Positions 503 through 23,485 are shown, numbered from the stretch's first letter. The stretch is 54,923 bases of DNA from Chloroflexota bacterium (GCA_003158295.1 PMIP01000067.1:9437-64359); one strand, 5' to 3'. The notes: generated from the letters alone by a model not told the origin. Program-made: numbers and translations.

Positions 503-524
503 AGCCGCCACCAGGAGCCGCCCC

Positions 525-3021: not shown

Positions 3022-3032
3022 GGGAGCGGACG

Positions 3033-3563
3033 ATGGGCGAGCAGAACGACGAAGCGTCCCGCCTGCCGGCTGGGGCGACCCCCGACGGAACCGGCGTCGG
3101 CGCGACGGCAGTCTCCGATGAGACGGCCGAGCTGCTGAGCCTGATCGATCGGCTCGGTGCGCTCCTGGAGCGAAGCGACCTGGCGGAGCTGGAGGTCGTG
3201 GCGGGCGAGACGGGCATAGTCCTGCGCAAGCCCGTCGCGCCGGTGCCATCGATGCCGGCCGTCGTGACTCCTGCCGCGGGCCCCGATACGGCCGGCGGCG
3301 CGGCCGTGACCGCCCCTGTCTCGACCGCGAAGATCGTGAGGGCGCCGCTGACGGGCATCTTCTACTCTGCTCCGTCGCCGGCCTCGCCCCCCTATGTCAC
3401 CGTCGGACACCGCGTCAAGGTGGGAGACGTGATCGGCCTCATCGAGGCCATGAAGCTCTTCAACGAGATCAAGTCGGACCAGGCCGGGCGAGTAGTGCGC
3501 ATGGTCGCCGAGTCCGGGAAGCTGGTCAAAGCGAAGCAGCCGCTGATTGAGGTCGAACCGTGA
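3033..3563 (+). CDS. accB: Biotin carboxyl carrier protein
   Basis: IEAMKLFNEI biotinylation motif and Pro/Ala linker; start reassigned to ATG 3033 behind a GGGAG SD. Confidence 0.93.
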   Translation: MGEQNDEASRLPAGATPDGTGVGATAVSDETAELLSLIDRLGALLERSDLAELEVVAGETGIVLRKPVAPVPSMPAVVTPAAGPDTAGGAAVTAPVSTAKIVRAPLTGIFYSAPSPASPPYVTVGHRVKVGDVIGLIEAMKLFNEIKSDQAGRVVRMVAESGKLVKAKQPLIEVEP

Positions 3564-4798
3564 AGCCTCGCGCCCTGTCCGGTGTCCACCTGACGGGCTG
3601 GGGAGCGTACGCCCCGAGCCTGGTCCTGACCAATGCCGATCTGGAGCGCATGGTCGACACCTCCGACGAGTGGATCGTGTCCAGGACGGGCATTCGGGAA
3701 CGTCGCATTGCCGGGCCGGGCGAGACTACCGCGAGCATGGCCGCCATTGCGGGGCTGCGAGCAATCGCCACGGCAGGCCTGCAGCCGGAAGAGATCGACC
3801 TGATCCTCGTCGGCACGCTCACTCCGGACTACCCGCTTCCCTCCGCGGCCGTGCTTGTCAAGGAGGCGATAGGCAACACCACGGCCGCCGCGATGGATCT
3901 GGCCGCGGCCTGCTCCGGCTTCGTGTACGGCTATGCCATGGCTCATGCGTATCTTTCGAGTGGCCTGGGGAAGCACGCCCTGGTCGTGGGCTCCGAGACG
4001 ATGAGCCGATGCACCGACTTCACCGATCGGGGCACGTGCGTGCTCTTCGGCGACGGCGCCGGGGCGGCGGTGCTCTCCGCCTCGGACGAGCCGGGCGGAA
4101 CCCTGGGCATGGAACTGACTACCGACACGGCCGCGACTTACTCGATATGGATCCCCGCCGGCGGCGCGACTCGCCCCGCCAACGAGGAGACGGTCGCGAG
4201 GCGAGAGCACCTGATGCGAATGAAGGGCGGCGAGACATTCAAGCTGGCCGTGAGGCGGCTTGGCTCTACGTCGCTCAACGCCCTCGAGAAGGCCGGCATG
4301 ACCCTGGAGGACGTGGACCTCGTCGTGCCTCACCAGGCCAACATTCGCATTCTCGAGGCGCTTGCGAAGTCGATGAAGTTCCCCATGGAACGGGTCTTCG
4401 TGAACATCGAGAAGTACGGCAACACCTCCGCGGCCTCCGTCCCTATCGCGCTGGTCGAGGCCGTCTCCGAGGGGCGCATCAAGCAGGGCGACCGCATCGT
4501 GTTCGTCGCATTCGGCGCGGGCGGCACGTCCGGGGCCATCGCGGTCCAGTGGACCGCGGATCCGGCAGACCGTCTCCGCGCCGAAGCCGTCGATCCCGAC
4601 CGCATCTCCATCTCCGTGCCGAACATCGAGCCCGTCAATCCCTTCCCGCCGGACCTGGAGTGGCTGCTCAAGGAGTCCACGTCCGACGCCCGCAACGGCC
4701 GACGTCTCGGGCTGGATGCCCGCTCGACTACGACCATCTCCAACGCGGCAGTCCCCGGCGCGGATGGGAGCGCCGCCGTCACCCGACCCGAGCGGTGA
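3560..4798 (+). CDS. fabH: Beta-ketoacyl-ACP synthase III with C-terminal extension
   Basis: DTSDEWIVSRTGIRERR, AACSGF, LFGDGAGA, PHQANIRI, YGNTSAAS. Confidence 0.96.
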   Translation: MKPRALSGVHLTGWGAYAPSLVLTNADLERMVDTSDEWIVSRTGIRERRIAGPGETTASMAAIAGLRAIATAGLQPEEIDLILVGTLTPDYPLPSAAVLVKEAIGNTTAAAMDLAAACSGFVYGYAMAHAYLSSGLGKHALVVGSETMSRCTDFTDRGTCVLFGDGAGAAVLSASDEPGGTLGMELTTDTAATYSIWIPAGGATRPANEETVARREHLMRMKGGETFKLAVRRLGSTSLNALEKAGMTLEDVDLVVPHQANIRILEALAKSMKFPMERVFVNIEKYGNTSAASVPIALVEAVSEGRIKQGDRIVFVAFGAGGTSGAIAVQWTADPADRLRAEAVDPDRISISVPNIEPVNPFPPDLEWLLKESTSDARNGRRLGLDARSTTTISNAAVPGADGSAAVTRPER

Positions 4799-4868
4799 GG
4801 TCGGGTCCGCGGCCGAGGGCGTGGATTCGAATCCGGCCGGACCGGAATGCCAGTAGAAGGAGCCAACC

Positions 4869-5618
4869 ATGATCGATCTGACCGGCAAATCCGCTCTCGT
4901 CACGGGCGGAGCTCGTGGCATCGGCAAAGCCATCTGCCTGAGCCTGGCCCGCCAGGGGGCCGACATCGCCTTCGTGGACGTGGGACGTGCCGATGTCGCC
5001 GAGGCGACGGTCGCGGAGATCGAGGCGCTCGGCCGCCGCGCGATCTACATTGCCGCTGATGTGACCGACCCGGAGGCATGCGTGAAGGCCGTCCAGGCCA
5101 CCGTCGAGGCCTTCGGCAAGATCGACATCCTGGTCAACAACGCCGGCATCACCCGCGATGACCTGATCATGCGAATGCCCATCGACGACTGGCGCAAGGT
5201 CCTGGAGGTCAATCTCTTCGGCGCCTTCTACATGATCAAGGCCGCCGTCCGCCCGATGCTCAAGGCCCATGCCGGCCGGATCATCAACATGTCCAGCGTT
5301 TCGGGCCAGGCCGGCCAGATGGGCCAGGCCAACTACTCGTCGTCCAAGGCCGGCCTGATCGGCCTGACCAAGGCGACGGCCCGCGAGGTGGCCTCGCGCG
5401 GCATCACCTGCAACGCCGTGGCCCCCGGTTTCGTCGTGACCGAGCTGACCAAGGACCTGCCTGCGGCCCTGACGGACCAGATCAAGGCAGCGACCCCGCT
5501 TGGACGCTTCGGGACGCCCGAGGAGATAGCCGCGACGGTCACTTTCCTCGCCTCCGACGAGGCGAGCTACATTACCGGCCAGATTCTCGCGGTCGATGGC
5601 GGCCTGGTGATGCAGTAG
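4869..5618 (+). CDS. fabG: 3-oxoacyl-ACP reductase
   Basis: TGGARGIG, NNAGITRD, GQANYSSSK, YITGQILAVDGG. Confidence 0.96.
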   Translation: MIDLTGKSALVTGGARGIGKAICLSLARQGADIAFVDVGRADVAEATVAEIEALGRRAIYIAADVTDPEACVKAVQATVEAFGKIDILVNNAGITRDDLIMRMPIDDWRKVLEVNLFGAFYMIKAAVRPMLKAHAGRIINMSSVSGQAGQMGQANYSSSKAGLIGLTKATAREVASRGITCNAVAPGFVVTELTKDLPAALTDQIKAATPLGRFGTPEEIAATVTFLASDEASYITGQILAVDGGLVMQ

Positions 5619-5695: not shown

Positions 5696-7318
5696 ATGTG
5701 GAACGAGACTCAAGACACCGCGGACGAGCCCGGCTCCGGCGCCGAGCCGGTGGCCGGCGAGCCCGGCTCCACCCACGAGCCCGATTCCGCCGCTGAACCG
5801 GCGGCGCGTCGTCGCGCGCCACTGATCGCGGCCGCCCTCTCGTTCAAGGCCCGGCTCACTCGATCGGCAGCTGCCGATCCCGACTCCGCGGCTGAACCGG
5901 CGGCGCGTCGTCGCGCGCCACTGATCGCGGCCGCCCTCTCGTTCCTCTGGCCGGGGCTGGGCCAGCTGTTCCTGGGTCGCCGGGCATGGGCCGCCATCTA
6001 CACCCTGCCGGCCGCGATCCTGACGGTGTGGATCGTCGTCCAGCTCACCAACGGACTGTGGTGGGTGGGCCTGAGCATGCTGGACGAGAGCTACGCCCTG
6101 ACGATCGCCGTCATCGTCGTTCTCGCCGGGGCCCTGCGCGCGATGTCGACGGCCCATGCCTTCTTCTCGGCGCACCGGACCAGGCGCCTCCGCTTCCATC
6201 CCGTGGAGGCGGGTCTTGTGGCGGCCCTCCTCGTAACCATCGTCGGGATGCACGCCTACGTGGCCGCCGATGCCTGGCTGGTGCATCAGGCAGATCTCGA
6301 CATCGCCGCCAACAACCGCATCCTCGTGGCGGGCGCTTCGCCATCTCCAAGCGCCAGCGCCAGCGTCAGCCCGACCGCCACGCCGACGCCCGCACCTATC
6401 GACCCTCTTGCGTTCTACCCGGCACCCACCGTCGCGCGGAGCTCCGAACCCGCGCCTGCTCAAACGAAGAACCCCGATCGGATCACCTTCCTGCTCGTGG
6501 GCACGGACAGCATGCCCGGCCGAGGCTTCGCGAACGCCATCACCGACACGATGATGGTCGTGAGCATGGATACGAAGACGGGCAAGGTGACCATGATCAG
6601 CGTGCCCCGCGACACCTCCGCCTTCGACCTGTACTACGGCGGCTGGGCCGAGTCCGGGTTGAAGCTCAATGAACTGGTCAACAACCTGATCAACGGCTAC
6701 TACAAGTCTCCCGACCCGCCGATGATCACGCTGAAGAAGGAGATCAGTTTCCTGGTAGGCCTTCCAATCGACTACTACGCCTCGATCGACCTGGGAGGCT
6801 TCGCCAGCATGATCAACGCCGTCGGGGGGATCGACATCTACAACGAGCAGGCGGTCGTCGACGCGGAGACAGGAATATCGGTGGGCGTCGGCCCTCTTCA
6901 CCTCAACGGCACTCTGGCCATGGCGTACGTCCGCTCGCGTGAGGGAGCGGGCGGCAGCGACTACAAGCGCGCAGCTCGTCAGCAGGCCCTGCTCGTGGCT
7001 CTCGAGAAGAAGGTGGCAAGTCCCTCCGTCCTGCCGAACCTAGGCAACCTCATCTCGCTGGCCGGCAAGGTCATCGCCACGGACTTTCCGCTCGAGAACG
7101 CCCGCGACTACGTGTCGGCCGCCCAGCACGTGACCTCGATATCCAACTGCGTGCTCGGTCCGCCCTACAGCTACCATCCGGACACGTCCACCACGGGCGG
7201 GACATGGACCAGCCGGCTGGACATGGCGCTGGTCGCCAACCTGTCGGTTGGGCTGTTCGGTTCCGAGAGCAGCTACTACGGGCTCCCCGGAGTCGTGCCG
7301 GCCGGCTGCCAGTCGTAG
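5696..7318 (+). CDS. LCP (LytR-CpsA-Psr) family glycopolymer transferase with multi-TM N-terminus
   Basis: FLLVGTD, TDTMMVVS, SVPRD, YVRSR, SDYKRAARQQ; several hydrophobic segments and a S/P/T linker. Confidence 0.9.
   Translation: MWNETQDTADEPGSGAEPVAGEPGSTHEPDSAAEPAARRRAPLIAAALSFKARLTRSAAADPDSAAEPAARRRAPLIAAALSFLWPGLGQLFLGRRAWAAIYTLPAAILTVWIVVQLTNGLWWVGLSMLDESYALTIAVIVVLAGALRAMSTAHAFFSAHRTRRLRFHPVEAGLVAALLVTIVGMHAYVAADAWLVHQADLDIAANNRILVAGASPSPSASASVSPTATPTPAPIDPLAFYPAPTVARSSEPAPAQTKNPDRITFLLVGTDSMPGRGFANAITDTMMVVSMDTKTGKVTMISVPRDTSAFDLYYGGWAESGLKLNELVNNLINGYYKSPDPPMITLKKEISFLVGLPIDYYASIDLGGFASMINAVGGIDIYNEQAVVDAETGISVGVGPLHLNGTLAMAYVRSREGAGGSDYKRAARQQALLVALEKKVASPSVLPNLGNLISLAGKVIATDFPLENARDYVSAAQHVTSISNCVLGPPYSYHPDTSTTGGTWTSRLDMALVANLSVGLFGSESSYYGLPGVVPAGCQS
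5780..5944 (+). repeat. 66-bp direct repeat (5780-5845 / 5879-5944) in the LCP gene, with a perfect 18-bp palindrome at 5862-5879
   Basis: Both copies encode PDSAAEPAARRRAPLIAAALSF with 2 synonymous differences; GATCGGCAGCTGCCGATC is self-complementary. Confidence 0.92.
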
Positions 7319-8678: not shown

Positions 8679-9284
8679 TCAGGCCGGCGGACCGAGGTGC
8701 TGCTCACGTCCAGGCACCCCAGCGGGTCCGGGCAGATCCCGAATCGTCCGATGGCCTACCAGCGTCGCCGGGTTGCCGGTGTAGATCCCGTTCGGTTGTG
8801 CGTCCTTGAGCAGTACTGAACCGAGAGTCACCACGGCGTTAGTCCCCACGGTCACGCCGGGCCCGATTTGCGAGAAGGCGCCAACCCAGGCGCCCGGATC
8901 GATCTTGATGGGTTTGACCATGAGGCCCATTCCCGGGTCAGACCAGTCGTGGTTGCCGGTGCACAGATAAGCGCCCTGGGAGATGACCGCATTCGATCCG
9001 ATTCGAACAGACACGAAGTTGTCGATCCAGGCCCTCTCGCCAATCCAGACGTTGTCCCCGACTACGAGATGCCATGGGTATTTGACGTGGACATTGGGTT
9101 TGATCAGAACGCCACGCCCCACCCTCGCGCCGAAGCGACGGAGCACCCAACGCTTCAGGCGATACGGCGTGACGACTGGGTTGAGCATGACGAGCGCCTC
9201 TACGACGAGCCAGAGAGCGCGATATGCAAACGACCGCCCGCTCTTGTATCCGCGTATGGAGGTCTTCGATAGATCAACGCTCAT
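8679..9284 (-). CDS. wcaF: WcaF-like hexapeptide O-acetyltransferase
   Basis: LRRFGARVG, VKYPWHL, ISQGAYLCTGNHD, GNPA. Confidence 0.85.
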   Translation of the reverse strand: MSVDLSKTSIRGYKSGRSFAYRALWLVVEALVMLNPVVTPYRLKRWVLRRFGARVGRGVLIKPNVHVKYPWHLVVGDNVWIGERAWIDNFVSVRIGSNAVISQGAYLCTGNHDWSDPGMGLMVKPIKIDPGAWVGAFSQIGPGVTVGTNAVVTLGSVLLKDAQPNGIYTGNPATLVGHRTIRDLPGPAGVPGREQHLGPPA

Positions 9285-9348: not shown

Positions 9349-10065
9349 CTAGAGCTCGAGCCCTGCCAGCTCGGCGTCGCGAACGAACATCTGCACCGTC
9401 TCGAGCGAGAACTCCGAAAGATCCTTTCCGACCAGATCGAGCTTCTTGAGGATGTCGGTCGTGGCCGTGATGATGTGGCACCCGATTTCGTCTGCCTGGA
9501 AGATGTTCAGAAGCTCGCGCGGGCTGGCCCAGAGCAGTTCGATGTTCGGATACGGCCGCAGGATCTCCAGCGCCTGTGTCATCAGCGGGACGGGATCGCG
9601 CCCGGTGTCGGCGATCCGTCCGGCAAAGACGGAGATGACCGCAGCAGGGGATGCCGACACAGCCTCGGCAGCCATTGCCACCTGCTCGTTCGTCAAGATC
9701 GCGGTCACGTTGAGACGAATGCCCTCCGCCGCCAGTCGACGCAGAAGCTCGCCGCTCGACCGCCCGTGAGTGTCCGTGATGGGTATCTTCACGAACACGT
9801 TGGAAGCCCAGCCTGCGAGCTCGGCCGCCTGCCTGTACATGAGCTCGAAGTCATCGGAGAGAACTTCGAAGTTGATCGGGCGGTCGGGTATTGCCGCGAG
9901 GACTGCCCGGGCAAAGGCTCGGTAGTCTGAGACCCCCGACTTACGCATGAGGGTGGGATTCGTCGTGAATCCCCGGATCAGCGGGTTGGCCCGCATCTCG
10001 ATCATGCCCGCGAGGTCCGCGCCATCGGCGAACACCTTGACCCGCAGATCGCCCAACGTCGTCAA
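9349..10065 (-). CDS. Short-type transaldolase (LmbR-like context)
   Basis: FADGAD, GFTTNPTL, NFEV, VFVKIP (Schiff-base Lys), SVFAGRIAD, LLWASPRE; TTG start inferred. Confidence 0.9.
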   Translation of the reverse strand: MTTLGDLRVKVFADGADLAGMIEMRANPLIRGFTTNPTLMRKSGVSDYRAFARAVLAAIPDRPINFEVLSDDFELMYRQAAELAGWASNVFVKIPITDTHGRSSGELLRRLAAEGIRLNVTAILTNEQVAMAAEAVSASPAAVISVFAGRIADTGRDPVPLMTQALEILRPYPNIELLWASPRELLNIFQADEIGCHIITATTDILKKLDLVGKDLSEFSLETVQMFVRDAELAGLEL

Positions 10066-10099
10066 ATCTCGACCTGACCTTCCACCTGCGACGGTCCCA

Positions 10100-10966
10100 C
10101 TACCAGACCAGACCGCGGTCTTTGGGCACGATGCGTCGCAGCGTATATACGTCACTTGATTGGAGATCGGCAGTATGGGCCGCCAACGTCTCCCATGGGT
10201 CCCACACTGCGCTGATCAGCTTACCGGTGATTCCGTCACTCAGGGACGACCCAAGGAACACGGCCAGTCCCGCCCCTCGATCGAGCGACGTGCCACCCTC
10301 GTCATGCTGGCGAACGGCGCGCTCGTAGAACTCGCGCCCGACCCTCTCCGGACCGGCCTCCAGCACTTCGCCGAGGAGTCGCGTGTTGAGAGCGCCAGGC
10401 GCTATTGAGTTCACGTCGATGCCAAACTCACGGACCTCTTCAGCCAACGTTTCGGCGAAGCGGACGATGCCTGCCTTCGAGGCTGCATAGGCGCTTATTC
10501 TCGGAAGGGGGGCCGTAGCGCCTCCTCCAGACAACTGCACGATCTTGCCGTATCGGTGCGCCTTGAAATGGGGGAGGACGGCCCGAGCCATGAGCACAGA
10601 GCCCAGCAGGTTGACTCGTATCGCTTCTGCCCACGGCTCCCACTCGACCTCGTCGATCGTCCCTTTCGGACCGTAGACGCCGGCGTTGTTGACGAGCACG
10701 TGCAACTGCGGGACTCGCTCCAGGCTGGCCGCGACAAGCCGCTCAGCGTCGTTCGGATCGGCGACGTCCGCCGTCTCAGCGGCGACGATCTGGCCTTCCT
10801 CGGCCAGGCCGGTGAGCTCCTCCAGAGCGTCGTCAAGAGGGCCCTTGTCGCGAGCACAGACGATGACGTTCGCCCCCGCCTCTACGTAGGCGCGGGCGAT
10901 GGCCAGTCCCAGTCCCATGCTGGCTCCGGTGATCAGCGCGGAGCGGCCCTGCAGTTCCTGCGTCAT
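10100..10966 (-). CDS. Classical SDR oxidoreductase
   Basis: TGASMGLG, VNNAG, YAASK. Confidence 0.9.
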   Translation of the reverse strand: MTQELQGRSALITGASMGLGLAIARAYVEAGANVIVCARDKGPLDDALEELTGLAEEGQIVAAETADVADPNDAERLVAASLERVPQLHVLVNNAGVYGPKGTIDEVEWEPWAEAIRVNLLGSVLMARAVLPHFKAHRYGKIVQLSGGGATAPLPRISAYAASKAGIVRFAETLAEEVREFGIDVNSIAPGALNTRLLGEVLEAGPERVGREFYERAVRQHDEGGTSLDRGAGLAVFLGSSLSDGITGKLISAVWDPWETLAAHTADLQSSDVYTLRRIVPKDRGLVW

Positions 10967-12261
10967 GCTCGGGCCAATCCCACGGCCGAATACCGAACCC
11001 TGGGGTCCGTCGCGAACAGCAGGGTGAGGAACCGCGCCGGATCCACGATGACAGGCCGTCGGAGCTCAGCCACGACTGCGTCGGGCGGGACCAGCCGGTA
11101 CTCCGGCCACGGTGTCATGACGACCAGAGCGTCTGCCCCGCGAGCCGCACTGAGCGCATCAGGCTGAAGGCTGATGCGACCGGCAAGGGCTGGCGGCAGG
11201 GCGTGCACGGCTGGATCGTGTGCGGCCGGGATCGCGCCCAGGTCCGCCAACCATTCACACAGCTCGATCGAAGCTGACCGGCGAAGCGTGTCCGTGCCGG
11301 GCTTGTAGGTCAGACCCCAAATCCCGATCCGCAGACCGCGCATCTCCCCCAACTGGGAGCACAGCGCGCGCCGAACCCATTGTTGCTGATGGCGGTTGCT
11401 GGGGCCGAGACTGGTCAAGAGGGGCGCCTCGATTTTCCGGGCCGAGATCAGGTCCGCGAGGAAGGTGACGTCGCGCCCCAGAGTCCCGCCCGCATACCCG
11501 GTCCCGAAGCCGAGATACGCCCGCTGGCCGATGCGAGGATCGCTCCTCAATGCACGAACGACATCGGCTACATCGGCTCCGACCGACTCACAGATAGCGG
11601 CGATCTCGTTTGCATAGACGATCGAGGTGGCCAGGAATACGTTCAGGGCGTGTTTCGTCATCTCGGCCGACTCGATCTGCATCCACTCGATCGGCGCTCC
11701 GAGAGGGTCGAGAAGTGCCGTGATGACCGCCCGACCGTTCGGGTCCTCCACGCCAACAACAATCCGCTCCGGCTTGGTGAAAGAGTCGATGGCAGTACCC
11801 AGTCTCAGGTTCTCCGGGCTATAGGCGAATGCCACGGCACGATCCTCGCCCAGCCGCTCGAAGGATCTCATGAGCTGGCGCGTGCTTCCGACGGGCAGTT
11901 GCGATGAGATCAGCATGACCGACCCTGCGGCGAGGGAGGGAAAGAAGTCGGTCGCGGCCTTGACCACCGAGTCCGGATCGGCCCGATCCGAGCTGTCGAC
12001 GGGGGTGTCGTAGCTGATCCAGACGACCTGGGCTTCTTCGGCCGCTGCGGCCACGTCCGAAGAGAAACGCAGTCGCCCGCTGGCGAGCCCTTCACCTATC
12101 AGCGCATCGAGGCCCGGTTCCTGGATCGGGGCCCGACCGGACGCCAGCAGCTCGACTCTCTGAGGGTCCGGATCGTGACCTACTACGTCGTGGCCGGCGG
12201 CCGCAAGACACGCCGCGGTGACCGTGCCGAGGTGCCAGAGGCCGGATACGCAGACCCTCAT
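10963..12261 (-). CDS. UDP-glucose/GDP-mannose dehydrogenase family protein lacking the catalytic Cys
   Basis: GLWHLG, SPENLRLG, SAEMTK, GLTYKPGTD; GYAGGTLGRD where GFGGSCFPKD is expected. Confidence 0.88.
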   Translation of the reverse strand: MRVCVSGLWHLGTVTAACLAAAGHDVVGHDPDPQRVELLASGRAPIQEPGLDALIGEGLASGRLRFSSDVAAAAEEAQVVWISYDTPVDSSDRADPDSVVKAATDFFPSLAAGSVMLISSQLPVGSTRQLMRSFERLGEDRAVAFAYSPENLRLGTAIDSFTKPERIVVGVEDPNGRAVITALLDPLGAPIEWMQIESAEMTKHALNVFLATSIVYANEIAAICESVGADVADVVRALRSDPRIGQRAYLGFGTGYAGGTLGRDVTFLADLISARKIEAPLLTSLGPSNRHQQQWVRRALCSQLGEMRGLRIGIWGLTYKPGTDTLRRSASIELCEWLADLGAIPAAHDPAVHALPPALAGRISLQPDALSAARGADALVVMTPWPEYRLVPPDAVVAELRRPVIVDPARFLTLLFATDPRVRYSAVGLARA

Positions 12262-12833
12262 CTGGTTGCTCCGGTTGCCCGCGCGACGCGCTCGCTGATC
12301 CAGCTCACGGCGCTCGGAAGCGACTCGACTCGAACCGTGGGCTCGAGGGTGAGCGACGGGTTCTCATGCCGGTCGATCAGGATCGTGGTACAGCCCGCCC
12401 GCTGGCCGGCTTCGATGTCCCGCCACCGGTCGCCGACCATGAAGCTGGCTGCCAGATCGATCCCCCAGTCATTCGCAGCCGACACCAGGAGGCCCGGCTT
12501 CGGCTTCCGGCAATCGCACAGGTCATCGTCGTCGTGATAGCAGATCCGGATGTCGTCCACCGGCACTACCTCTCGCAGCCGTTGGTGGATGGCTTCCACG
12601 ATCTCGCGTCGCTGCGTGCCGCGCGCGACGTCGGGTTGGTTCGTGACCACGATCCGCAGGAAGCCAAGCGCGCCGAGACGGCGGCACGCCTCGGCGACTC
12701 CCTCCATGATCGCGAACTCCGCAAGGCCGGCCGGTGGCCGGGGCACACCGTCCGTGCCAATGAAGCTCTGGTTGAGCACGCCATCTCGATCCAGGAACAC
12801 CGCCGGCCGACCGCTCAAGTGGCCGACTCCCAC
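12258..12833 (-). CDS. gmhB: HAD-IIIA sugar-bisphosphate phosphatase (GmhB-like)
   Basis: FLDRDGVLN, VTNQ, CYH..CDCRKPKPG, MVGDR. Confidence 0.88.
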   Translation of the reverse strand: MGVGHLSGRPAVFLDRDGVLNQSFIGTDGVPRPPAGLAEFAIMEGVAEACRRLGALGFLRIVVTNQPDVARGTQRREIVEAIHQRLREVVPVDDIRICYHDDDDLCDCRKPKPGLLVSAANDWGIDLAASFMVGDRWRDIEAGQRAGCTTILIDRHENPSLTLEPTVRVESLPSAVSWISERVARATGATR

Positions 12834-13408
12834 TTCCCGGGCTTCTGACGAACGGCAGGGTGGGAAACCAGCAGGTGCCAGATGACCGCCTGCAGGCCCT
12901 CCGTCTGGGGAGTGACTGTGTCGCTGTCTACGGGCGGGATCACGACGGCTTCGCCCACAGCAGCGGTGTACCCTCCGTCGCGGCCGACGATGCCCAGAAC
13001 CGTCGCCCCGACCTCTCGGGCAAGTTCGATGCAGCGAACCAGGTTGACGCTGATGCCGCGAGCTGCATCGCCCCCGCCGACGGAGAAGATCAGGATCGCG
13101 TCGGACGCATCTATCCGGCTAACACGTAGCCAATTGGAGTAGCTCGTCTCCCAGCCCTCGTCGTTGATCCGTGCCGTGAGCTCGGAAACGTTGTCCGTGG
13201 GCGCGTAAGCCTCGATGCCGGCGATCTTGCGGAAGTCGTTGACCGCATGCGAGGCGTGCCCCGCGCCGCCGCCTGACCCGAGGATGAAGAGGCGACCGCC
13301 GCGGGCTCGAACGGCAGCGAGCTCCGAAGCGATGCGTTCGATTGCCTCGCGATCGAGAAGATCGATGATCTTCTTGGAGTTGGAGAGGAACTGGTCTGTG
13401 TAGGTCAT
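12815..13408 (-). CDS. SIS-domain phosphosugar isomerase (GmhA-like)
   Basis: GSGGGAGHASH..NDF, LTARIND, SVGGG, TPQTEG.Q..IWH. Confidence 0.88.
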   Translation of the reverse strand: MTYTDQFLSNSKKIIDLLDREAIERIASELAAVRARGGRLFILGSGGGAGHASHAVNDFRKIAGIEAYAPTDNVSELTARINDEGWETSYSNWLRVSRIDASDAILIFSVGGGDAARGISVNLVRCIELAREVGATVLGIVGRDGGYTAAVGEAVVIPPVDSDTVTPQTEGLQAVIWHLLVSHPAVRQKPGKWESAT

Positions 13409-13415
13409 TCCGTAT

Positions 13416-14555
13416 TCACGGCCGGGCCAGGCGGTCAGCCTTGCGCACGACTCCCATCTCCTTCATCACCCGCTCGGCTTCGAGCAGGTATTCGTCCGTG
13501 CCCACTTGGGTATCGAGCCACTCGAGGTACTGGCGAACATTGTCTTCGACCGGGGTGCGCGGCTCCCAGCCAAGCGACCGCATCCGCGTGAGGTCGCTCA
13601 CGGTGTGGCGGGTATCACCAAGCCGATACTCGCCGGGCACCATCGGCTCCAGGTTACTACCCGACGCGTCGAGCATCATCCCGGCGAACTCGAGAACCGT
13701 GACGGCGCGGCCACCGCCGACGTTGAGCGCCAGGCCGTTCGACAGCGGGTTCTCGAGGGCGATGAGGTTGGCTCTGGCGACATCCCGAACATTCACGTAG
13801 TCGCGTCTCTGGAGCCCATCTTCGTAGCAGACCGGGGGAAGCCCGGCCCGGATACGCAGGGCGAAGCGCCTCGCAATGCCGGAATAGGCGTTGTAGAAGG
13901 AGTTGCGAGGCCCCTGGACATACGTGTAGCGCATCGCTGCGGTCTCGATGCCGTATCGGCGCCCGAGGTTGAAAGCCAGCAGCTCAAGGGCGTACTTGGA
14001 GACGCCGTACGTGGTTCCAGGATTGCTGCAAGTGGCCTCGTCGATCAGGAGCGGCGTCGCAGTGGACCCGCACGTCGGACATTGAATGTCCCACTCGCCG
14101 CGCTGGAGCTGATCGGGCGGCCTCGGGTCCGGATGGAAGACGGTGCCCTCGGCGTCGCAGCTGTACTTGCCCTCGCCCGACACCGACTGAGAGGACGCAA
14201 CGACAAGCTTGCGGAGCGGGAAACGGTCCGGATCGGAGACGGCCAGCTCGAAGATCAGCGCCGTCGACTCGGTGTTGGTGTGGATGAACGTGCTGAAATC
14301 GGGCAGGTAGTCCTGGTAGGCAGCCATGTGAAACACATAGTCCACGCCCCGGAGAGCCCGTTCCATGTCGGCCCGGTTGGCTACGTCGCCCTGGATGAAC
14401 TCGATGTCCGCCGGAACGTAGGTGGGCTTGCCCCGGGGGTGGACCCGCGGCTGGAGCGAATCGATGATCCGGACCTCATACCCTTTCTCGAGCAGGAGGT
14501 CGACGGTGTGAGACCCGATGAAGCCGGCCCCACCGGTGACGAGAACGAGGCTCAT
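13416..14555 (-). CDS. NAD-dependent NDP-sugar epimerase/dehydratase with Cys-containing insert
   Basis: VTGGAGFIG, YGVSK, GPRN, RDYVNVRDVA; ATG overlaps upstream stop (ATGA). Confidence 0.9.
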   Translation of the reverse strand: MSLVLVTGGAGFIGSHTVDLLLEKGYEVRIIDSLQPRVHPRGKPTYVPADIEFIQGDVANRADMERALRGVDYVFHMAAYQDYLPDFSTFIHTNTESTALIFELAVSDPDRFPLRKLVVASSQSVSGEGKYSCDAEGTVFHPDPRPPDQLQRGEWDIQCPTCGSTATPLLIDEATCSNPGTTYGVSKYALELLAFNLGRRYGIETAAMRYTYVQGPRNSFYNAYSGIARRFALRIRAGLPPVCYEDGLQRRDYVNVRDVARANLIALENPLSNGLALNVGGGRAVTVLEFAGMMLDASGSNLEPMVPGEYRLGDTRHTVSDLTRMRSLGWEPRTPVEDNVRQYLEWLDTQVGTDEYLLEAERVMKEMGVVRKADRLARP

Positions 14556-15541
14556 ACGTTCAGCATCACTTTGGCGCCGTCGTAGTCGAATGCGTAGGGC
14601 ATCTCGCGGAGCCCTTCGCGGCCAAGCGCCTCGCGCACTGCTGCCTTTGCGGCCCCCGGGCAGTAGAGCAGGAGGAACCCTCCTCCACCCGCGCCCACGA
14701 GCTTCCCGCCCAAGGCACCGCAATCTCGGGCGATCCCATACCAGCGATCGACATCGGGATTGCTGATGAGGGCGGACCGGCGCTTCTTGTTCTCCCAGTG
14801 TTCATGCAGGATCACGCCGAACTCGTCGACTCTACCGGCTTCGAGCGCGGCCTTGACCTGCCGTCCCAACTCCTTGGTCCGGTGCAGGCTCTCGACAACG
14901 TTCGGCTGGGCCGAGGCCGTGTCGCGCTTCTGTTCCGCCAGGATGGTGTTGGCGCTCCTCGTAATCCCCGTGAAGAAGAGCAGGACGTTGTGCCGAAGCT
15001 CGGCTGCCGTCGTCGGGGAGATGTCCAGCGGGGTTACGGTGACGCGACCGTCTCGCTCGATCTCCAGGCACGTGATGCCGCCGAAAGCCGCCATGTAGTG
15101 GTCATGCTTGCCCACGGCATGCCCGGCGAGGTCCATCTCGATATGGCACGCCTCTTCGGCGAGTGCGTGCGTCGGGATCCGTTCGCGCTTCAACTCGTGC
15201 AGGCCCGTCAGCAGTGCCACGAGATACGTCGCCGACGACCCGAGCCCGGTTCCGGCCGGGACGTCCGCCATGGAGGTGATCTCGATGTTCCCCGAAATCC
15301 CCAACTCCAGAAGGGCGGGCCGCACGAGGTCGTGCTGGACTTCCGAGGGGGTCTTCACTTCCTCGTATCGCGTGTACTTGACCCTGATGAGCTCGTCCGC
15401 GGCGGGCTTGTTCAGGTACACATACACGTACTTGTCGATGGCGGCGCTGAGAATGAAGCCGCCGTACTGCTCGTAGTAGGAGGGGAGATCCGTGCCGCCG
15501 CCGCCCAGGGCGATGCGAAGCGGTGCCCTGACGAGGATCAT
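14552..15541 (-). CDS. GHMP-family sugar-phosphate kinase (HddA-like)
   Basis: RAPLRIALGGGGTD, PAGTGLGSS, GGKLVGAGGGG. Confidence 0.92.
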   Translation of the reverse strand: MILVRAPLRIALGGGGTDLPSYYEQYGGFILSAAIDKYVYVYLNKPAADELIRVKYTRYEEVKTPSEVQHDLVRPALLELGISGNIEITSMADVPAGTGLGSSATYLVALLTGLHELKRERIPTHALAEEACHIEMDLAGHAVGKHDHYMAAFGGITCLEIERDGRVTVTPLDISPTTAAELRHNVLLFFTGITRSANTILAEQKRDTASAQPNVVESLHRTKELGRQVKAALEAGRVDEFGVILHEHWENKKRRSALISNPDVDRWYGIARDCGALGGKLVGAGGGGFLLLYCPGAAKAAVREALGREGLREMPYAFDYDGAKVMLNV

Positions 15542-16269
15542 CGCGCACCCATCGAGCTGCCCGTCGCGAGGGTTGCCTCGGTCGCCTTCAGGTCATCGAT
15601 GGTGTCGATCCACATCACGCGATCACCATGTGCCAGACGGTGGCCTCGCAGCGCATGCGGACGCTGCACCAGCTTCGGCATGACGTCGCGGCTCAGGTCG
15701 CTGGGGGTCGCCGTGGGGATGACTTCGAACAACTCAGGCTCACAGACCAAGAGGCCGGCGTTCACCCAGTGACTCCTCTCTGTTCCCGGGACGGGCTTCT
15801 CCTGAAACTCCGTGATCCACCCGGCATCGTCCAGCACAGCCACTCCGCTGCTGCTTACGTCCGGACGCTCCAGCAGGAGCATGCTGGCCGTTGCTCCAGA
15901 TTGTCTGTGGCCGTCGACCACGGCTGCCAGTTGCAGGTCGAACAGGTTGTCCGCATAGACGACGACGAACGTTTCGTCCCCGAGCAGGGACCGTGCAGCC
16001 AGGACCCCTCCGGCGGTGCCCAGCAGCTCAGGCTCGCGCGAGTATGCCACGCTCACGCCCAGGCGCGACCCGTCACCAATGGAGTCGACGACCGCTTCGG
16101 CGTGATGATGGAGGTTGATCACCAACTCGCGGATCCCATTCGAGCGGAGCCAGTCGATGTTGCGGATCAGGACCTCACGGCCGGCCACGGAGACCATGCA
16201 TTTCGGCCGGTCCGCCGTGAGCGGGGACAGGCGAGTACCGAGCCCTGCGGCGAGCAGCATCGCCTTCAT
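15538..16269 (-). CDS. Sugar-1-phosphate nucleotidyltransferase (HddC/M1P-guanylyltransferase-like)
   Basis: MKAMLLAAGLGTRL..PK, LGTAGG, EKP, VNAG; ATGA overlap. Confidence 0.92.
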   Translation of the reverse strand: MKAMLLAAGLGTRLSPLTADRPKCMVSVAGREVLIRNIDWLRSNGIRELVINLHHHAEAVVDSIGDGSRLGVSVAYSREPELLGTAGGVLAARSLLGDETFVVVYADNLFDLQLAAVVDGHRQSGATASMLLLERPDVSSSGVAVLDDAGWITEFQEKPVPGTERSHWVNAGLLVCEPELFEVIPTATPSDLSRDVMPKLVQRPHALRGHRLAHGDRVMWIDTIDDLKATEATLATGSSMGAR

Positions 16270-17276
16270 GTGTGAGGCACCTCGACGGCAGTCCCGGACC
16301 TGGCGGATTCGTAGATCGCGTCGAGGATGCGCGCAGCCGCAAGGCCGTCGTTGCCGTTGCCCAGGGGTTGTCTGTGCTGCTTGATCGCCGTCGAGAACTC
16401 CTGCCATTCGCTTTGCCAGGACTGGTCTGGGCCTTCGAACGAAGTGGTCGTCTCGATCGGCGGTGAGGAATCCTCATTCCGCTTGGCGACGGTCAACTGC
16501 TCCGTTCCGTAGGAGCCGCCGAGTCCGTCGATTCGAAGGTAACCGGTCGTTCCGAGGACCTCGAAACGGAAGGCGTTCTTCCATTGAGTCCAACTCGTGT
16601 GGAACGACACGATGCCCCCGCTGCTGGCGCGCAGGAGCGCGAACGCGTTGTCCTCGACCGGTTGGATCGGCCAGTGAAATGTTCCGACGTAGCCCTGGGC
16701 TTGATCTATCTCCCCGATGAACCATCGCGTCAGATCCACGATGTGGACGCCCTGATCCAGGAGCTCGCCACCCCCCGAACGAGCCGGGTCGGCTCGCCAT
16801 TCTCGTTCGTACCCGGCCCTACCACCGTGCCCGTAGAGCGCTCGGATCGCGAAGACATCGCCTATCGAGCCCTGGCCCACCAGCTCGCGCGCAGCGGCGA
16901 TTGCAGGGTGATGGCGGTGGTTGAACCCGACCTTCAGCAGCCTGCCTGCGGTTTCGGCCGCCCGGACGATCGCCGCTGCTTCTGCTGCGTTCCGGCCCAA
17001 CGGCTTCTCGCAAAGGACGTGCTTGCCCGAGTCCAGGGCCGCGATCGAGGCTTCAGCGAGAAGATCGTTCGACGTGGAGACAACCACTACGTCCAGGTCG
17101 TCGCGCGAGACGACCTCTCTCCAGGACGCCGTCCATCTGGACCCCGTGGCCGCCGCGACCGCTGCCGCGCGATCCTCCGCGAGGTCTGCCACGACGATGA
17201 CTTCGTCGCCCGAGTCGAGCGCCACCTTGGCCCGGCGCGTACCGATGAGGCCGCACCCGATGATTCCGACCCTCAT
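16266..17276 (-). CDS. Gfo/Idh/MocA family oxidoreductase
   Basis: GIIGCGLIG, GKHVLCEKP, GGGELLDQGVH. Confidence 0.92.
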   Translation of the reverse strand: MRVGIIGCGLIGTRRAKVALDSGDEVIVVADLAEDRAAAVAAATGSRWTASWREVVSRDDLDVVVVSTSNDLLAEASIAALDSGKHVLCEKPLGRNAAEAAAIVRAAETAGRLLKVGFNHRHHPAIAAARELVGQGSIGDVFAIRALYGHGGRAGYEREWRADPARSGGGELLDQGVHIVDLTRWFIGEIDQAQGYVGTFHWPIQPVEDNAFALLRASSGGIVSFHTSWTQWKNAFRFEVLGTTGYLRIDGLGGSYGTEQLTVAKRNEDSSPPIETTTSFEGPDQSWQSEWQEFSTAIKQHRQPLGNGNDGLAAARILDAIYESARSGTAVEVPHT

Positions 17277-17667: not shown

Positions 17668-18804
17668 GTGCGGGTAGTCCATTTCGCACCAGCCGTAATC
17701 CCGACCCAAACCCATCTCTACAATGCCATCGCGAAGCTAGTCGATCTCCACGTCGTCTACCTGTCCGAGCCGACGGATCGACGCAAAGGTCAGCTGTGGA
17801 CCGGCTTTGACGATCAGTGGGGAACCGAGCCACGCTACCCCTACCAGTTCTCCGACACCCGATCCTTGAGCATCGGAGCCCTGGACTTGTTGGTGGCCGC
17901 GCCCCGCAGACTTGGCTCCGTGCTGGACGAACTCAAACCGAACGTCGTCTCCGTAACCGGCTGGGGCCTTTCGTCGATTTCGCCGATCCGCTGGGCGAGG
18001 AAACGTCACATCCCCACGGTCATGTACAACGAGAGCGGCAAGACCTCCGGACTCCTCCGTGACCCTCTGTCGAACGCGTACCGTCGTTGGATGTTGCGGG
18101 GCTGCGATGCGTACCTCACCGTAGGGTCGGCCGCAACGCAGTACGTAACGCAGCTCGGCGCGGCACCCGACCGATGCGTTGAATCCTGTCTTCCCGCGGC
18201 GGACGTTCGCCACGGCGACGAGGCAACGGTGCCCGAAGAGGAAGAAGGCAAGCTGCGGATCCTGTGGGTCGGACGACTGAACAAGCGAAAGCATCCGGAG
18301 GTCGCCGTTGAGGCCTTCGGCCGGATTGCCCGGCAGATAGATGGGGCCAGCCTGACCATTGTCGGGGCCGGACCGCTGGAGGCCAAAGTCCGGGCAGCCG
18401 CTGCTCGGGTCGGTGGGCCCATCGAGCTGTTGGGCCGCGTCGAGGGCGAGCGCCTGGCCGCGATCTATCGCAGGCACGACGTCCTGGTGGTTACCGCAGT
18501 CCGAGAAACCTGGGGTCTCGTGGTCAATGAGGCCCTGGCGCATGGGCTTTACGTCATTGCCTCCGACGGCGTCGGGTCCGCGAACTACCTCATTGAGGAA
18601 AGCACCGGACGAGTTGTCCCCGCCGGAGATGTCGAGGCCTTCGCCGAAGCTCTCCGCGGGTTCGCGACTACGCGGCACAGCCGGCCTCCCCGCCGCGCAG
18701 CCGTTGGTCGGATACGCTTGTGCACCGCAGAGGCGTTCGCGGAGAAGTACCTTCAGGTGTTCGACCTTGCGGTATCCAGACGGGCAGCCGTCGAGGGTGT
18801 CTGA
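17668..18804 (+). CDS. GT4 family glycosyltransferase
   Basis: WVGRLNKRK, ETWGLVVNEA. Confidence 0.9.
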   Translation: MRVVHFAPAVIPTQTHLYNAIAKLVDLHVVYLSEPTDRRKGQLWTGFDDQWGTEPRYPYQFSDTRSLSIGALDLLVAAPRRLGSVLDELKPNVVSVTGWGLSSISPIRWARKRHIPTVMYNESGKTSGLLRDPLSNAYRRWMLRGCDAYLTVGSAATQYVTQLGAAPDRCVESCLPAADVRHGDEATVPEEEEGKLRILWVGRLNKRKHPEVAVEAFGRIARQIDGASLTIVGAGPLEAKVRAAAARVGGPIELLGRVEGERLAAIYRRHDVLVVTAVRETWGLVVNEALAHGLYVIASDGVGSANYLIEESTGRVVPAGDVEAFAEALRGFATTRHSRPPRRAAVGRIRLCTAEAFAEKYLQVFDLAVSRRAAVEGV

Positions 18805-21097: not shown

Positions 21098-21964
21098 CTA
21101 CTCGTCGCCGGACGGCATCCATCGCCGGAGTTGTGCCACCTGCCGGAAGGCTATGCGTGCCGCTGAGGGACGATCGAGGTTCAGGATGTCGCTTCCGCGA
21201 GCCGCTTCGCGGACCTTCGCAAGGCCGGCAATCCTGAGGCCCAGCTTCAGCAGCTTGGGCTTGATTCTGGATTTCGTCGGCTCGGGCAACCCGTATCTCT
21301 CGGAGATGATGGCGCCGTCTTTTAGGGCGAGATCGAGCCGCGTGTAGGACTTCCGCATCGAATGGTGACGGTCGATGGCCAGGATCTCGTCCAAGCGGCG
21401 GAAGACGGTGATGTCCGCCAGGTGAAGCCAAAGCTCCAGATCCATCCTGTAGTCGCATTCTGGATCCACGAAGAATGGACGGGAGATCAGCGACCGTCTG
21501 ACGAAGACAGTCGGCTGCCAGATGAAGTTGAACGCCCGGAGGCGCGATCGTGTGAACGGTGGTGCCCACATCACGTAGAGAAGCTCGCCGGCGCCGTTGA
21601 CGAGGGCGGCGTGGCCATAGACAACCCCGACCTCGGGGTGGCTTTCGAAGACATCCACGACATGCTGGACGACGTCGCTCGAGAAGTAGGCATCGTCGGA
21701 GTTGAGCCAGCCGATGATTTCACCGGTTGATCGAACGAAGGCCTTGTTGATGGCGTCTGACTGTCCCTCGTCGGGCGTCGACTCCCACACGACCACCGGC
21801 GAGGCCGATGCCAGGATCTCCACTGATCCGTCAGTCGACCCACCGTCCATGACCACGTGCTCGATGGCCGGGTATGACTGCGCTGCCACCGAGCGCAGGT
21901 TGTCCGCCAGCCACCGTCCCTGGTTGTAGGAAGGGGTGAGGATCGAAACCAGAGGCGCTGTCAT
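21098..21964 (-). CDS. GT2 glycosyltransferase (WfgS/WcaE-like)
   Basis: SILTPSYNQ, DGGSTDG, GWLNSDD, WQPTVF. Confidence 0.92.
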   Translation of the reverse strand: MTAPLVSILTPSYNQGRWLADNLRSVAAQSYPAIEHVVMDGGSTDGSVEILASASPVVVWESTPDEGQSDAINKAFVRSTGEIIGWLNSDDAYFSSDVVQHVVDVFESHPEVGVVYGHAALVNGAGELLYVMWAPPFTRSRLRAFNFIWQPTVFVRRSLISRPFFVDPECDYRMDLELWLHLADITVFRRLDEILAIDRHHSMRKSYTRLDLALKDGAIISERYGLPEPTKSRIKPKLLKLGLRIAGLAKVREAARGSDILNLDRPSAARIAFRQVAQLRRWMPSGDE

Positions 21965-22111
21965 GTCAGCGCACGATCTCGTCGACGGAGAAGAGGTGAT
22001 TCCAGGCATGAAGCCGGGCAGTGGAGCGCTTTCCACGCCCGATGGGTGGCCTTGTGAGGCATGTCCGGACCGGCAGCGACATCGCTACGTGGACCGAATG
22101 TCTCGGGAGTC

Positions 22112-23485
22112 TCATCTACTGATCGGCTCCCTTCCGGGCACCCTCGGGGGGGCGGACGTCTGAGCAGGAGGTGCGTCCGGGCCACCCGTTCCGATCTCTC
22201 GAAGCGCACGTCGTGTGTAGAAAGCGGCAACGACTACGTTGGCCCCGTCGCGGGACATGGATGCCACTGCGGCGCCTACGGCGCCAAGCCACCAATCCAG
22301 CGAGCAGTGGAGAAGGATGCTCACGCAGAAGGCTGCGGCGAAGGCTCGGGTCGTGTCCATGCCATGATCGAGGGCAATCAGGACCCCTATGAGCGGAGCG
22401 CCGAGCACCGAAAGGAGCATGGACCACATGAGGATCCGGGTGGGCGTGGCCGAGTCGGCGTACGAGGAGCCAAGAAGGAGCGAGATGACCTGAGGCATCA
22501 GCACGAACAGTACTACTGAACCTGGTATGCCCAAGACGGCTCCACCGATCCAGAGCTTGCGCATGAGATCAGCCAGATGCTGTGCTGAATCGCGCCCGGC
22601 GGCGTACCGCGCCATCATCGGGATGGCGACCAATGACAGCGAACCCGGCAGCAGATAGAGGGCGTCCTGTATTCGCGAGGCAGGAGCGTACGCGGCGAAC
22701 TGATTGGTTGAGGTCAGCGCGGCGACGATCACTACATCGAGACGGTTGTAAGCGACGCTCAGCACGCTATTGCTGGCGTAGGGCAAGGCCCGTCTGATGG
22801 TGATCCGAGAAGGGTCCCAGTCTCCGACACGCGAGTACGATGCCCACGGCCGCAGCATGACGAAACCTAGCCCTGTCGTCACGGCTTCACCCGCGGCAGT
22901 CGCCAGAGCGAGGATTACCAAGGCTTCTTGGGCACTCGTGACCACGAAAGCTACCGCAACCAGACCAGTGGTCGTCCATCGCCCGGCCGCCGATGCGAGC
23001 GTAGCGTCCCGGAAGGCCGAACGCGCCCTGAGGGCGGCGAGCACCGGCACCTGGATCGATGCGAGGACAGAGCCTGCGGAAAACACGATCAGCACGGTCG
23101 CGTCGACGGGTAGCGACCTGGCCAGGATCGCGTAGCCAAGGGCGAGAACGATCGCCCAAATCGGCAGTGTGGGCAGACGCAAGGTCAGCGCCCGGCCCAG
23201 AGCTTGCATGGCGGGGGCCGAGTTCTTGGCAACTTCAACGCTCACCAGCGTGGAGACGCCCGCGTCCCAGAAGGCGGATCCGAGCAGGGATGTGGCCAAT
23301 ACCCCTATGTAGAGACCGAACTCGGTGGGCACCAACTGCCTTGCGGCGAGGAGATTCAGCAACAGCACCGCTACTTTGGAGGCACCATCGCCTCCAAGCG
23401 TCCACGCGAGAGAAGCGCGGAGCCGGCGAGGGGACGGAATGCTCGCCTCGCTTGCCGCGACCGGTGCGGCCCGGTCGTCACCCAC
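22112..23485 (-). CDS. Wzx-like oligosaccharide flippase
   Basis: Many TM segments; YNRLDVVIV..FAAYAPASR; GAVGAAVAS. Confidence 0.82.
   Translation of the reverse strand: MGDDRAAPVAASEASIPSPRRLRASLAWTLGGDGASKVAVLLLNLLAARQLVPTEFGLYIGVLATSLLGSAFWDAGVSTLVSVEVAKNSAPAMQALGRALTLRLPTLPIWAIVLALGYAILARSLPVDATVLIVFSAGSVLASIQVPVLAALRARSAFRDATLASAAGRWTTTGLVAVAFVVTSAQEALVILALATAAGEAVTTGLGFVMLRPWASYSRVGDWDPSRITIRRALPYASNSVLSVAYNRLDVVIVAALTSTNQFAAYAPASRIQDALYLLPGSLSLVAIPMMARYAAGRDSAQHLADLMRKLWIGGAVLGIPGSVVLFVLMPQVISLLLGSSYADSATPTRILMWSMLLSVLGAPLIGVLIALDHGMDTTRAFAAAFCVSILLHCSLDWWLGAVGAAVASMSRDGANVVVAAFYTRRALREIGTGGPDAPPAQTSAPPRVPGREPISR

Follow-up and report, generated by a model that had tools for sequence, protein, structure and literature searches.

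Introduction

The described pathways closest to the locus analysed here are those that activate heptoses, either with GmhA, HddA, GmhB and HddC or, for ADP-heptose, with GmhA, HldE, GmhB and HldD, together with the octose sub-pathway of the lincosamide antibiotics encoded by the lmb and ccb genes. In lincosamide biosynthesis, 6-epimerisation is followed by 6,8-dehydration, 4-epimerisation and 6-transamination, and transaldolase-derived octoses are, to our knowledge, known only from these antibiotics. Here we describe a cassette of nine genes in a 54,923-nucleotide stretch of DNA from a Chloroflexota bacterium (GCA_003158295.1, PMIP01000067.1:9437-64359; the window hereafter). On balance, we consider that this operon makes a nucleotide-activated higher-carbon sugar, most likely an octose, for a cell-wall glycan assembled by Wzx and Wzy proteins and attached by a LytR-CpsA-Psr (LCP) protein. 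What is new is a widespread, lincosamide-like higher-sugar cassette serving envelope glycans, the kind of pathway itself being already known. The limited literature that we searched held no description of the cassette, or of a transaldolase-derived octose pathway for a surface glycan.

Results

The operon and the lincosamide-type references

Nine genes, all on the minus strand, fill positions 9349-17276 of the window and were assigned to families with Pfam and NCBIfam (Table 1). They encode a Gfo/Idh/MocA oxidoreductase (Gfo), a nucleotidyltransferase (NTP), a GHMP kinase (GHMP), an extended-SDR epimerase (Epi), a SIS isomerase, a HAD phosphatase, a UDP-glucose-dehydrogenase-like (UGDH-like) protein, a classical SDR and a small transaldolase (TAL). 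Neighbouring genes overlap by 4 nucleotides (nt) at the Gfo/NTP, NTP/GHMP, HAD/UGDH and UGDH/SDR junctions, by 1 nt at GHMP/Epi and by 19 nt at SIS/HAD, while gaps of 7 nt and 34 nt separate Epi from SIS and SDR from TAL. An earlier reading of the sequence alone had claimed nine co-oriented, mostly overlapping genes at these positions, and its families and strand agree with ours; the transaldolase start that it gave, 10155, is an upstream GTG, and homologues use the start that yields a protein of 238 amino acids. A Candidatus Limnocylindrales metagenome-assembled genome (MAG; locus L003) carries the identical nine-gene order, with 87-97% protein identity. The nine genes form one operon and one pathway.

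To obtain lincosamide-type references, we searched 401 genomes of a Streptomyces-like genus for small transaldolases. The TIGR02134 model at E ≤ 1e-30 matched 0 of the 401, because the R-type transaldolase is too distant for that threshold; with the window transaldolase as query at E ≤ 1e-8, matches were obtained in six genomes. Around each of the six matches, genes for HAD, UGDH-like, epimerase, SIS, Gfo, GHMP, NTP and DegT proteins form a block with the transaldolase gene, in the order lmbK-L-M-N-Z-P-O-S-R in Table 2 of PMC4351081, within the accessible part of that article. In two of these genomes (G802 and G938) the block is accompanied by PmbA/TldD genes, a methyltransferase, a class I/II aminotransferase, two AMP-binding enzymes, a glycosyltransferase (GT) and a chorismate-binding enzyme, and the Z protein is longer by ~95 C-terminal residues. 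Their gene content agrees with the celesticetin-type (ccb) list in the same accessible part of PMC4351081, and G802 and G938 served as Ccb-type references, Lmb or Ccb type being assigned by gene content. Best-hit tests used four genomes: G802, G938, G712 and G778. Among the PDB matches of the window proteins there were no Lmb or Ccb sugar enzymes, and among the NCBIfam matches no Lmb-named models.

The Gfo and UGDH-like proteins

The window Gfo protein is 46-50% identical to Z-type proteins (46-48% to the Ccb-type members) and scores 272-287 bits against the Ccb-type members in phmmer searches, compared with 116 bits for the best PDB chain. Its best match was the Z gene in all four Streptomyces-like genomes (238-288 bits; next paralogue 106) and, in the reverse direction, the Z-type protein retrieved the window Gfo from the window's own genome, G000, at 247 bits versus 67. 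The Gfo tree places the window protein beside the Z clade, with the cassette proteins, the Z clade and long-branch paralogues forming a polytomy.

The UGDH-like protein shares 34-37% identity with L-type proteins (204 bits in phmmer), and its best hit is the L gene in G802 and G938, where the relationship is reciprocal. The column of C253 of Escherichia coli Ugd (GGYCLPKD), which we take to be the catalytic Cys of UGDH in the motif GGxC[LF]PKD, holds Thr in the window protein (AGGTLGRD). Thr is also found at this column in 10 cassette orthologues (AGGTL[GA]RD) and in 6/6 L-type proteins (SGSTLQRD or AGATLHRD), which share a TLxRD motif; all 16 ordinary paralogues in the alignment retain the Cys, among them five housekeeping UGDHs of the Streptomyces-like genus. 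In the tree, the 27 Cys-less proteins make up one side of a branch with support of 99-99.9 in the SH-like approximate likelihood ratio test (SH-aLRT). The protein cannot be an ordinary uronic-acid-forming dehydrogenase, because the catalytic Cys is lacking and its column holds Thr, and this candidate function was rejected.

The isomerase, phosphatase, kinase and nucleotidyltransferase

Similar comparisons were made for the enzymes whose families also serve heptose activation. The SIS protein is 31-37% identical to N-type proteins (31-32% to those of Ccb type), scoring 64 bits against the Ccb-type ones and 40 against GmhA in the PDB, and its best match was the N gene in 4/4 genomes (51-64 bits), with GmhA-like paralogues at 21-28. 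The three groups of the SIS tree join at one node, and therefore only its distances are informative: 7.25 from the window protein to N-type and ~11.3 to GmhA. Four features set the window and N-type proteins apart from GmhA: the loop FSV[GH]GG and an insertion after it, three inserted residues with a TP motif, an Asp at the position of the second Glu in GmhA HFAEEL, and TNDE or TNDD where GmhA has GNDF or GNDY.

The HAD protein is 45-47% identical to K-type proteins, and 45-46% to those of Ccb type (135-136 bits in phmmer versus 78 for GmhB in the PDB). The K gene was its best match in 4/4 genomes, at 81-136 bits, compared with 54-74 bits for the GmhB-like paralogues that G802 and G712 have within a few kb of GmhA-like genes. 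The GHMP kinase and the P-type protein, at 37% identity, are each other's best hit, and the P gene was the only match in 4/4 genomes. The nucleotidyltransferase aligns with O-type at 33% identity over 159 residues (65 bits), which makes it no closer to O than to HddC in the PDB (62 bits), while UGPase in the PDB reaches 130; kinase and nucleotidyltransferase relationships are read from bit scores, the trees being built without named HddA or HddC. Searched back into G000, the Ccb-type Z, L, P, K, N and O proteins all return window genes. These comparisons support a specific relationship of five enzymes (Gfo, UGDH-like, SIS, HAD and GHMP) to lincosamide octose genes rather than to canonical heptose genes.

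The curated heptose models gave low scores throughout. Against an NCBIfam cut-off of 209 bits, SIS reached 39 on the GmhA model; GHMP scored 174.5 on the HddA model (cut-off 600), HAD 121 on NF006506 for GmhB (cut-off 178) and 90 on TIGR00213 (cut-off 150), and the nucleotidyltransferase 70.6 on the HddC model (cut-off 300) and 132.6 on the MurU model (cut-off 250). With all four enzymes well under curated cut-offs, the cassette is, as judged by model scores, not the canonical heptose pathway. Additionally, a near-canonical GmhA (207 and 198 bits) is present beside the cassette SIS in two of the five cassette genomes checked; a search of G000 for a second GmhA-like gene returned none besides the cassette SIS.

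Distribution and variants

A pattern scan with one genome per species yielded 587 transaldolase relatives, of which the best 80 loci were kept. A gene was scored as present when a tblastn match covered at least 60% of the query, and the resulting counts are lower bounds, because many loci end at contig ends. Of these best 80 loci, 69 have SIS, 66 HAD and 43 the GHMP kinase. In 18 of the 80, spread over 8 phyla, an SDR occurs together with a Gfo of Z-type (39% identity or more); the sequence-only reading had suggested that similar cassettes might exist in other genomes, and by this synteny search they are widespread. The full set of UGDH, SDR, Gfo, GHMP, NTP, SIS, HAD and TAL was found in 10 loci, all with a T-type (Thr-bearing) UGDH-like protein, a Z-type Gfo and an SDR. 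The order UGDH-SDR-Gfo-GHMP-NTP-SIS-HAD-TAL is seen in L004, L019, L024, L032, L060, L072, L074 and L080; the window and L003 have Gfo-NTP-GHMP-Epi-SIS-HAD-UGDH-SDR-TAL, and L045 has its UGDH-like and SDR genes on the opposite strand.

A second variant was observed in 10 loci (L006, L008, L011, L025, L034, L039, L040, L047, L070 and L079). Here the SIS-HAD-transaldolase triad occurs with epimerases, an HldE-like kinase/adenylyltransferase and distant Gfo and UGDH-like proteins. The HldE-like protein falls below cut-offs and has its adenylyltransferase domain before the kinase, a reversed order, and the UGDH-like protein of all 10 loci has Asn at the catalytic Cys position (AGGNLERD). In the gammaproteobacterial L025 (8846-9976), open reading frame extraction shows the SIS frame apparently continuing into HAD; this is a candidate SIS-HAD fusion, with a frameshift possible, and would fit the tight linkage of SIS and HAD elsewhere.

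Complete K-L-M-N-Z-P-O-S-R blocks are also found in G712 (L093/L094), G778 (L095/L096), G807 (L097/L098) and G974 (L099/L100), that is, in 4 of the 401 Streptomyces-like genomes, and their N and Z proteins are without carrier-protein extensions. The flanks of G712, the only ones scanned, hold a GT1-like gene, an ABC ATPase, permeases and a two-component system, with no adenylation gene among the neighbours checked. These four blocks may represent an amino-octose pathway outside lincosamide clusters.

The transaldolase, epimerase and SDR

The window transaldolase scores 322 bits on TIGR02134 (cut-off 282) and keeps both the VKIP Lys, presumably the Schiff-base Lys, and the SxFxGR Phe. Contig C90 of G000 carries another transaldolase, of housekeeping type and 32% identical to the cassette copy. 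Across 21 genomes (G000 and 20 relatives of its genus or order), TIGR02134 passes its cut-off in only two, G000 and G010, indicating that the cassette is accessory. In G003, of the same genus, a TIGR02134 transaldolase is spread over two adjacent frames (C2:211429-212128) and is probably frameshifted. Two proteins from MAGs named by NCBI as archaeal Methanomethylicaceae (P0214 and P0221) are 69% identical to the window transaldolase; the family thus crosses domains and is unusually conserved.

The window epimerase shares 25-27% identity with Ccb M-type proteins and, when M-type was searched into G000, other epimerases matched better than the window one; it is not an orthologue of LmbM. Homologues of at least 53% identity occur only in L003, L014 and L015 of the 80 loci, and the window epimerase would appear to be an addition specific to its lineage. 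Between its two Pfam stretches lies an insertion of ~50 residues with four Cys, including CPTC, which may be a small metal-binding insert.

A classical SDR accompanies 10/10 T-type cassette loci, and DegT accompanies 6/6 Streptomyces-like clusters. No SDR was found in those six clusters except for a weak 28% match elsewhere in G807, and no DegT aminotransferase in the window, the nearest in G000 being on contigs C29 and C84. The earlier claim of an SDR without an aminotransferase is borne out by this distribution. The wider lincosamide analogy of the sequence-only reading stands for Z, L, N, K and P, on best hits, motif and indels; it fails for orthology to LmbR and LmbM, and no aminotransferase is present. 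In L019, a full cassette from Thermoanaerobaculia, a DegT gene (15095-16213) encoding a protein 48.5% identical to the S-type protein of G712 lies ~5 kb beyond the transaldolase, and the product here may be an amino sugar, as in the lincosamide clusters.

Genomic setting

The window is contig C18 of G000, a MAG of 2.7 Mb at 85% completeness; among named relatives, Candidatus Limnocylindrales and Chloroflexota are the nearest. By Pfam, a flippase, a polymerase-like protein, glycosyltransferases and an LCP protein share one neighbourhood with the operon (Table 1), in keeping with the surface-glycan context that had been claimed from flippases and GTs. Further Pfam assignments among the neighbours are an FkbM methyltransferase, an SGNH protein, two hexapeptide acyltransferases in all and DUF3048, and the window also has additional GT4 and GT2 genes and a GDP-mannose dehydratase pair. 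Homologues of the hexapeptide acyltransferase next to the operon were sought in the 80 loci and none was found at the thresholds used; it is not conserved. Fatty-acid synthesis genes occupy the window below ~5.6 kb. Third-position GC is 0.85-0.89 in the fatty-acid genes (1-5618) and 0.71-0.83 in the glycan-locus genes (7334-29918), which would fit a horizontally acquired or faster-evolving glycan island.

Table 1 Genes of the operon and of its surroundings, in window coordinates.
Feature	Position	Strand	Basis
Gfo/Idh/MocA oxidoreductase, LmbZ/CcbZ-type	16266-17276	-	Pfam, phmmer, best hits in both directions, tree
Sugar-1-phosphate nucleotidyltransferase	15538-16269	-	NTP_transferase, PF00483
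GHMP anomeric sugar-phosphate kinase, HddA/LmbP-like	14552-15541	-	HddA model, phmmer
Extended-SDR epimerase/dehydratase with Cys-containing insertion	13416-14552	-	Pfam Epimerase, two stretches
SIS_2 ketose-phosphate/aldose-phosphate isomerase, LmbN/CcbN-like rather than GmhA	12815-13408	-	
HAD-IIIA sugar-bisphosphate phosphatase, GmhB/LmbK-like	12258-12833	-	
Cys-less UGDH-like protein, LmbL/CcbL-type	10963-12261	-	Three UDPG_MGDP_dh domains
Classical SDR, putative ketoreductase paired with Gfo	10100-10966	-	adh_short, 168 bits
Small transaldolase (TAL_FSA; TIGR02134 family)	9349-10065	-	NCBIfam
LCP protein	5696-7318	+	PF03816, 108.9 bits
Hexapeptide-repeat acyltransferase, downstream of operon	8679-9284	-	Pfam
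GT4 glycosyltransferase, divergent from operon	17668-18804	+	Pfam
GT2 glycosyltransferases	21098-22036 and 24566-25537		Pfam
Wzx-type flippase	22112-23485	-	Polysacc_synt_3 and Polysacc_synt
Two Wzy_C-domain membrane proteins flanking GT4	27106-31656	-	Pfam

Discussion

We infer the order of the steps from the enzyme families, and likewise the number of carbons, the activating nucleotide, the regiochemistry and the structure of the product. The dedicated TIGR02134 transaldolase would transfer a three-carbon unit from fructose-6-phosphate or sedoheptulose-7-phosphate to an aldose phosphate, giving a ketose phosphate; with ribose-5-phosphate, the most likely acceptor, the product would be octulose-8-phosphate. 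The LmbN-like SIS isomerase would convert ketose phosphate to aldose phosphate, the GHMP kinase would phosphorylate O1, the HAD phosphatase would remove the terminal phosphate and the nucleotidyltransferase would yield the nucleoside diphosphate (NDP) sugar. The LmbZ-type Gfo and the Cys-less LmbL-type enzyme would then remodel the exocyclic chain as the lincosamide L/Z pair does, and the classical SDR would reduce the resulting ketone where lincosamide clusters transaminate, leaving a neutral sugar, with the extra extended-SDR epimerase providing lineage-specific tailoring. An 8-deoxy-octose as the specific outcome is a tentative suggestion, and one that we would not ourselves bet on.

The sugar would have seven or eight carbons, and the protein comparisons incline us, by a modest degree, towards eight. 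A sugar other than an ordinary heptose, most simply an octose, is favoured because both lineages keep a transaldolase though the two are non-orthologous, because a near-canonical GmhA coexists with the cassette in some genomes, and because SIS and HAD prefer octose-type paralogues. Several observations weigh against an octose or against the lincosamide kinship behind it. The transaldolase is not an LmbR orthologue: it belongs to another subfamily, is 30% identical to the Ccb R-type (86 bits in phmmer, with the best PDB chain at 80), and R-type searched into G000 prefers the housekeeping transaldolase (105 bits) to the window gene (96 bits). R-type is fsa/talC-like, scoring 144 on TIGR00875 and 104 on TIGR02134, and has SLLWGR or SILWCR, whereas the window enzyme has SVFAGR, the ordinary S-x-F-x-G-R found in the housekeeping enzyme; TIGR02134 is itself annotated as an ordinary transaldolase. 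Given this non-orthology and these motif differences, nothing ties the cassette transaldolase to a ribose-5-phosphate acceptor. Similarly, the GHMP kinase is about equally close to P-type proteins (192 and 175 bits) and to heptokinases in the PDB (179, 170 and 143), the UGDH-like protein scores higher against a true UGDH in the PDB (239 bits) than against L-type (204 bits) and has the housekeeping UGDH, not L, as its best match in G712 and G778, and the grouping of T-type cassette proteins with L-type has an SH-aLRT of only 70-85. The trees come from quick searches and have long branches. Also, a UGDH-like gene is missing from 8 of the 18 loci with Gfo plus SDR, in some because the contig ends, so that the L/Z pairing is not obligatory, and our literature searches, which surveyed the field in part, returned only branched octoses and no linear one from a surface glycan.

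Some of this fits a modified NDP-heptose, an outcome that we regard as possible, if rather unlikely. The transaldolase would then only raise the supply of sedoheptulose-7-phosphate, SIS, GHMP, HAD and NTP would be divergent analogues of GmhA, HddA, GmhB and HddC, and Gfo, SDR and the UGDH-like protein would act on a ring carbon or on the side chain at C6-C7, for instance through an oxidation-reduction epimerisation. A TIGR02134 transaldolase with ordinary motifs and without the R-type changes would suit this role, as would a kinase equally close to solved heptokinases; the window HAD, GHMP and NTP outscore the Ccb-type proteins on the heptose models, G000 has no other GmhA-like gene, and the existence of Gfo-plus-SDR cassettes without a UGDH-like gene agrees with simple oxidise-and-reduce epimerisation. 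Set against a heptose are the scores on all four heptose models, far under curated cut-offs, the preference of SIS and HAD for octose-type N and K over the heptose-type paralogues of the same genomes, and the near-canonical GmhA alongside the cassette in two of five genomes. Furthermore, a dedicated transaldolase is part of no heptose cluster in the portion of the literature available to us, and in the accessible part of PMC12945683 the only chemistry for which an L/Z-type pair is known is that of octoses.

UGDH-family and Gfo pairs also occur in UDP-GlcNAc(3NAc)A pathways, and the operon might accordingly hold two unrelated adjacent pathways, an activation set (TAL, SIS, GHMP, HAD and NTP) and a UDP-hexose oxidation set of the WbpA/WbpB kind (UGDH-like, Gfo and SDR). 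The Gfo score of 100 bits on an archaeal UDP-GlcNAc 3-dehydrogenase model and the hexapeptide acyltransferase adjoining the operon would agree with this; the UGDH-like protein without its catalytic Cys, the lack of an aminotransferase in the window, the company that UGDH-like, Gfo and SDR genes keep with the activation set in 10 loci of several phyla and in another gene order, and their place inside one contiguous block in lincosamide-type clusters make it improbable. More improbable still is an operon that is part of a lincosamide-like secondary-metabolite cluster instead of serving a surface glycan. Such a cluster would predict the homology seen for K, L, N, Z and P, but the 55-kb window has no adenylation, condensation, PmbA/TldD, LmbE-like or DegT genes adjoining the operon; the neighbours are instead Wzx, Wzy-like, LCP, GT2, GT4, acyltransferase and methyltransferase genes, and the cassette is found in eight phyla in polysaccharide-type contexts.

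If the octose reading is taken further, linear aldo-octoses made by the transaldolase route could be common in the envelope glycans of uncultured Chloroflexota, Acidobacteriota, Elusimicrobiota, Myxococcota and others, with an 8-deoxy-octose in cassettes like that of the window, and the lincosamide sugar pathway could be an offshoot in which the transaldolase was replaced and a transaminase took the place of the ketoreductase. We offer this wider scenario as a conjecture, plausible though somewhat short of an even chance. Were the sugar to have eight carbons, the envelopes of abundant soil and freshwater bacteria would contain a whole class of sugars that has gone unnoticed, and the lincosamide sugar genes would gain an evolutionary source. 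Even with a heptose, the Cys-less UGDH-like clade and the Z-type Gfo would be a distinct, widespread and uncharacterised tailoring module, and the SIS-HAD-transaldolase triad a front end, recurrent and undescribed, that serves activation of both the GDP and the ADP type. The cassette proteins are all small and soluble, which makes the question directly testable in vitro.

Compared with known systems, the window shares with the GmhA/HddA/GmhB/HddC heptose pathway four enzyme families and the logic of isomerase, anomeric kinase, phosphatase and nucleotidyltransferase. It adds to that pathway a transaldolase, a Gfo, a Cys-less UGDH-like enzyme and an SDR, and its SIS and HAD are closer to octose-type enzymes than to GmhA-like and GmhB-like paralogues. 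Unlike the ADP-heptose pathway (GmhA, HldE, GmhB and HldD), the window uses a GHMP and NTP_transferase route; the second variant, exemplified by L025, joins the SIS-HAD-TAL triad to an HldE-like protein and epimerases. With the UGDH family (Ugd, TuaD and BceC), the UGDH-like protein has in common the three-domain fold, a TIGR03026 score of 287 bits, above cut-off, and a best PDB score of 239, whereas Cys is changed to Thr and PKD to GRD and the protein is placed in a Cys-less clade with L-type. The lmb/ccb octose sub-pathway and the window are alike in their enzyme families, in specific homology for Z, K, P, L and N, and in having a dedicated small transaldolase. The two differ in that the window transaldolase is of another subfamily, its epimerase is non-orthologous, and it has an SDR but no DegT; the window cassette also lacks carrier-protein domains, condensation genes and thiol-handling genes, and is set in a Wzx/Wzy/LCP locus in Chloroflexota.

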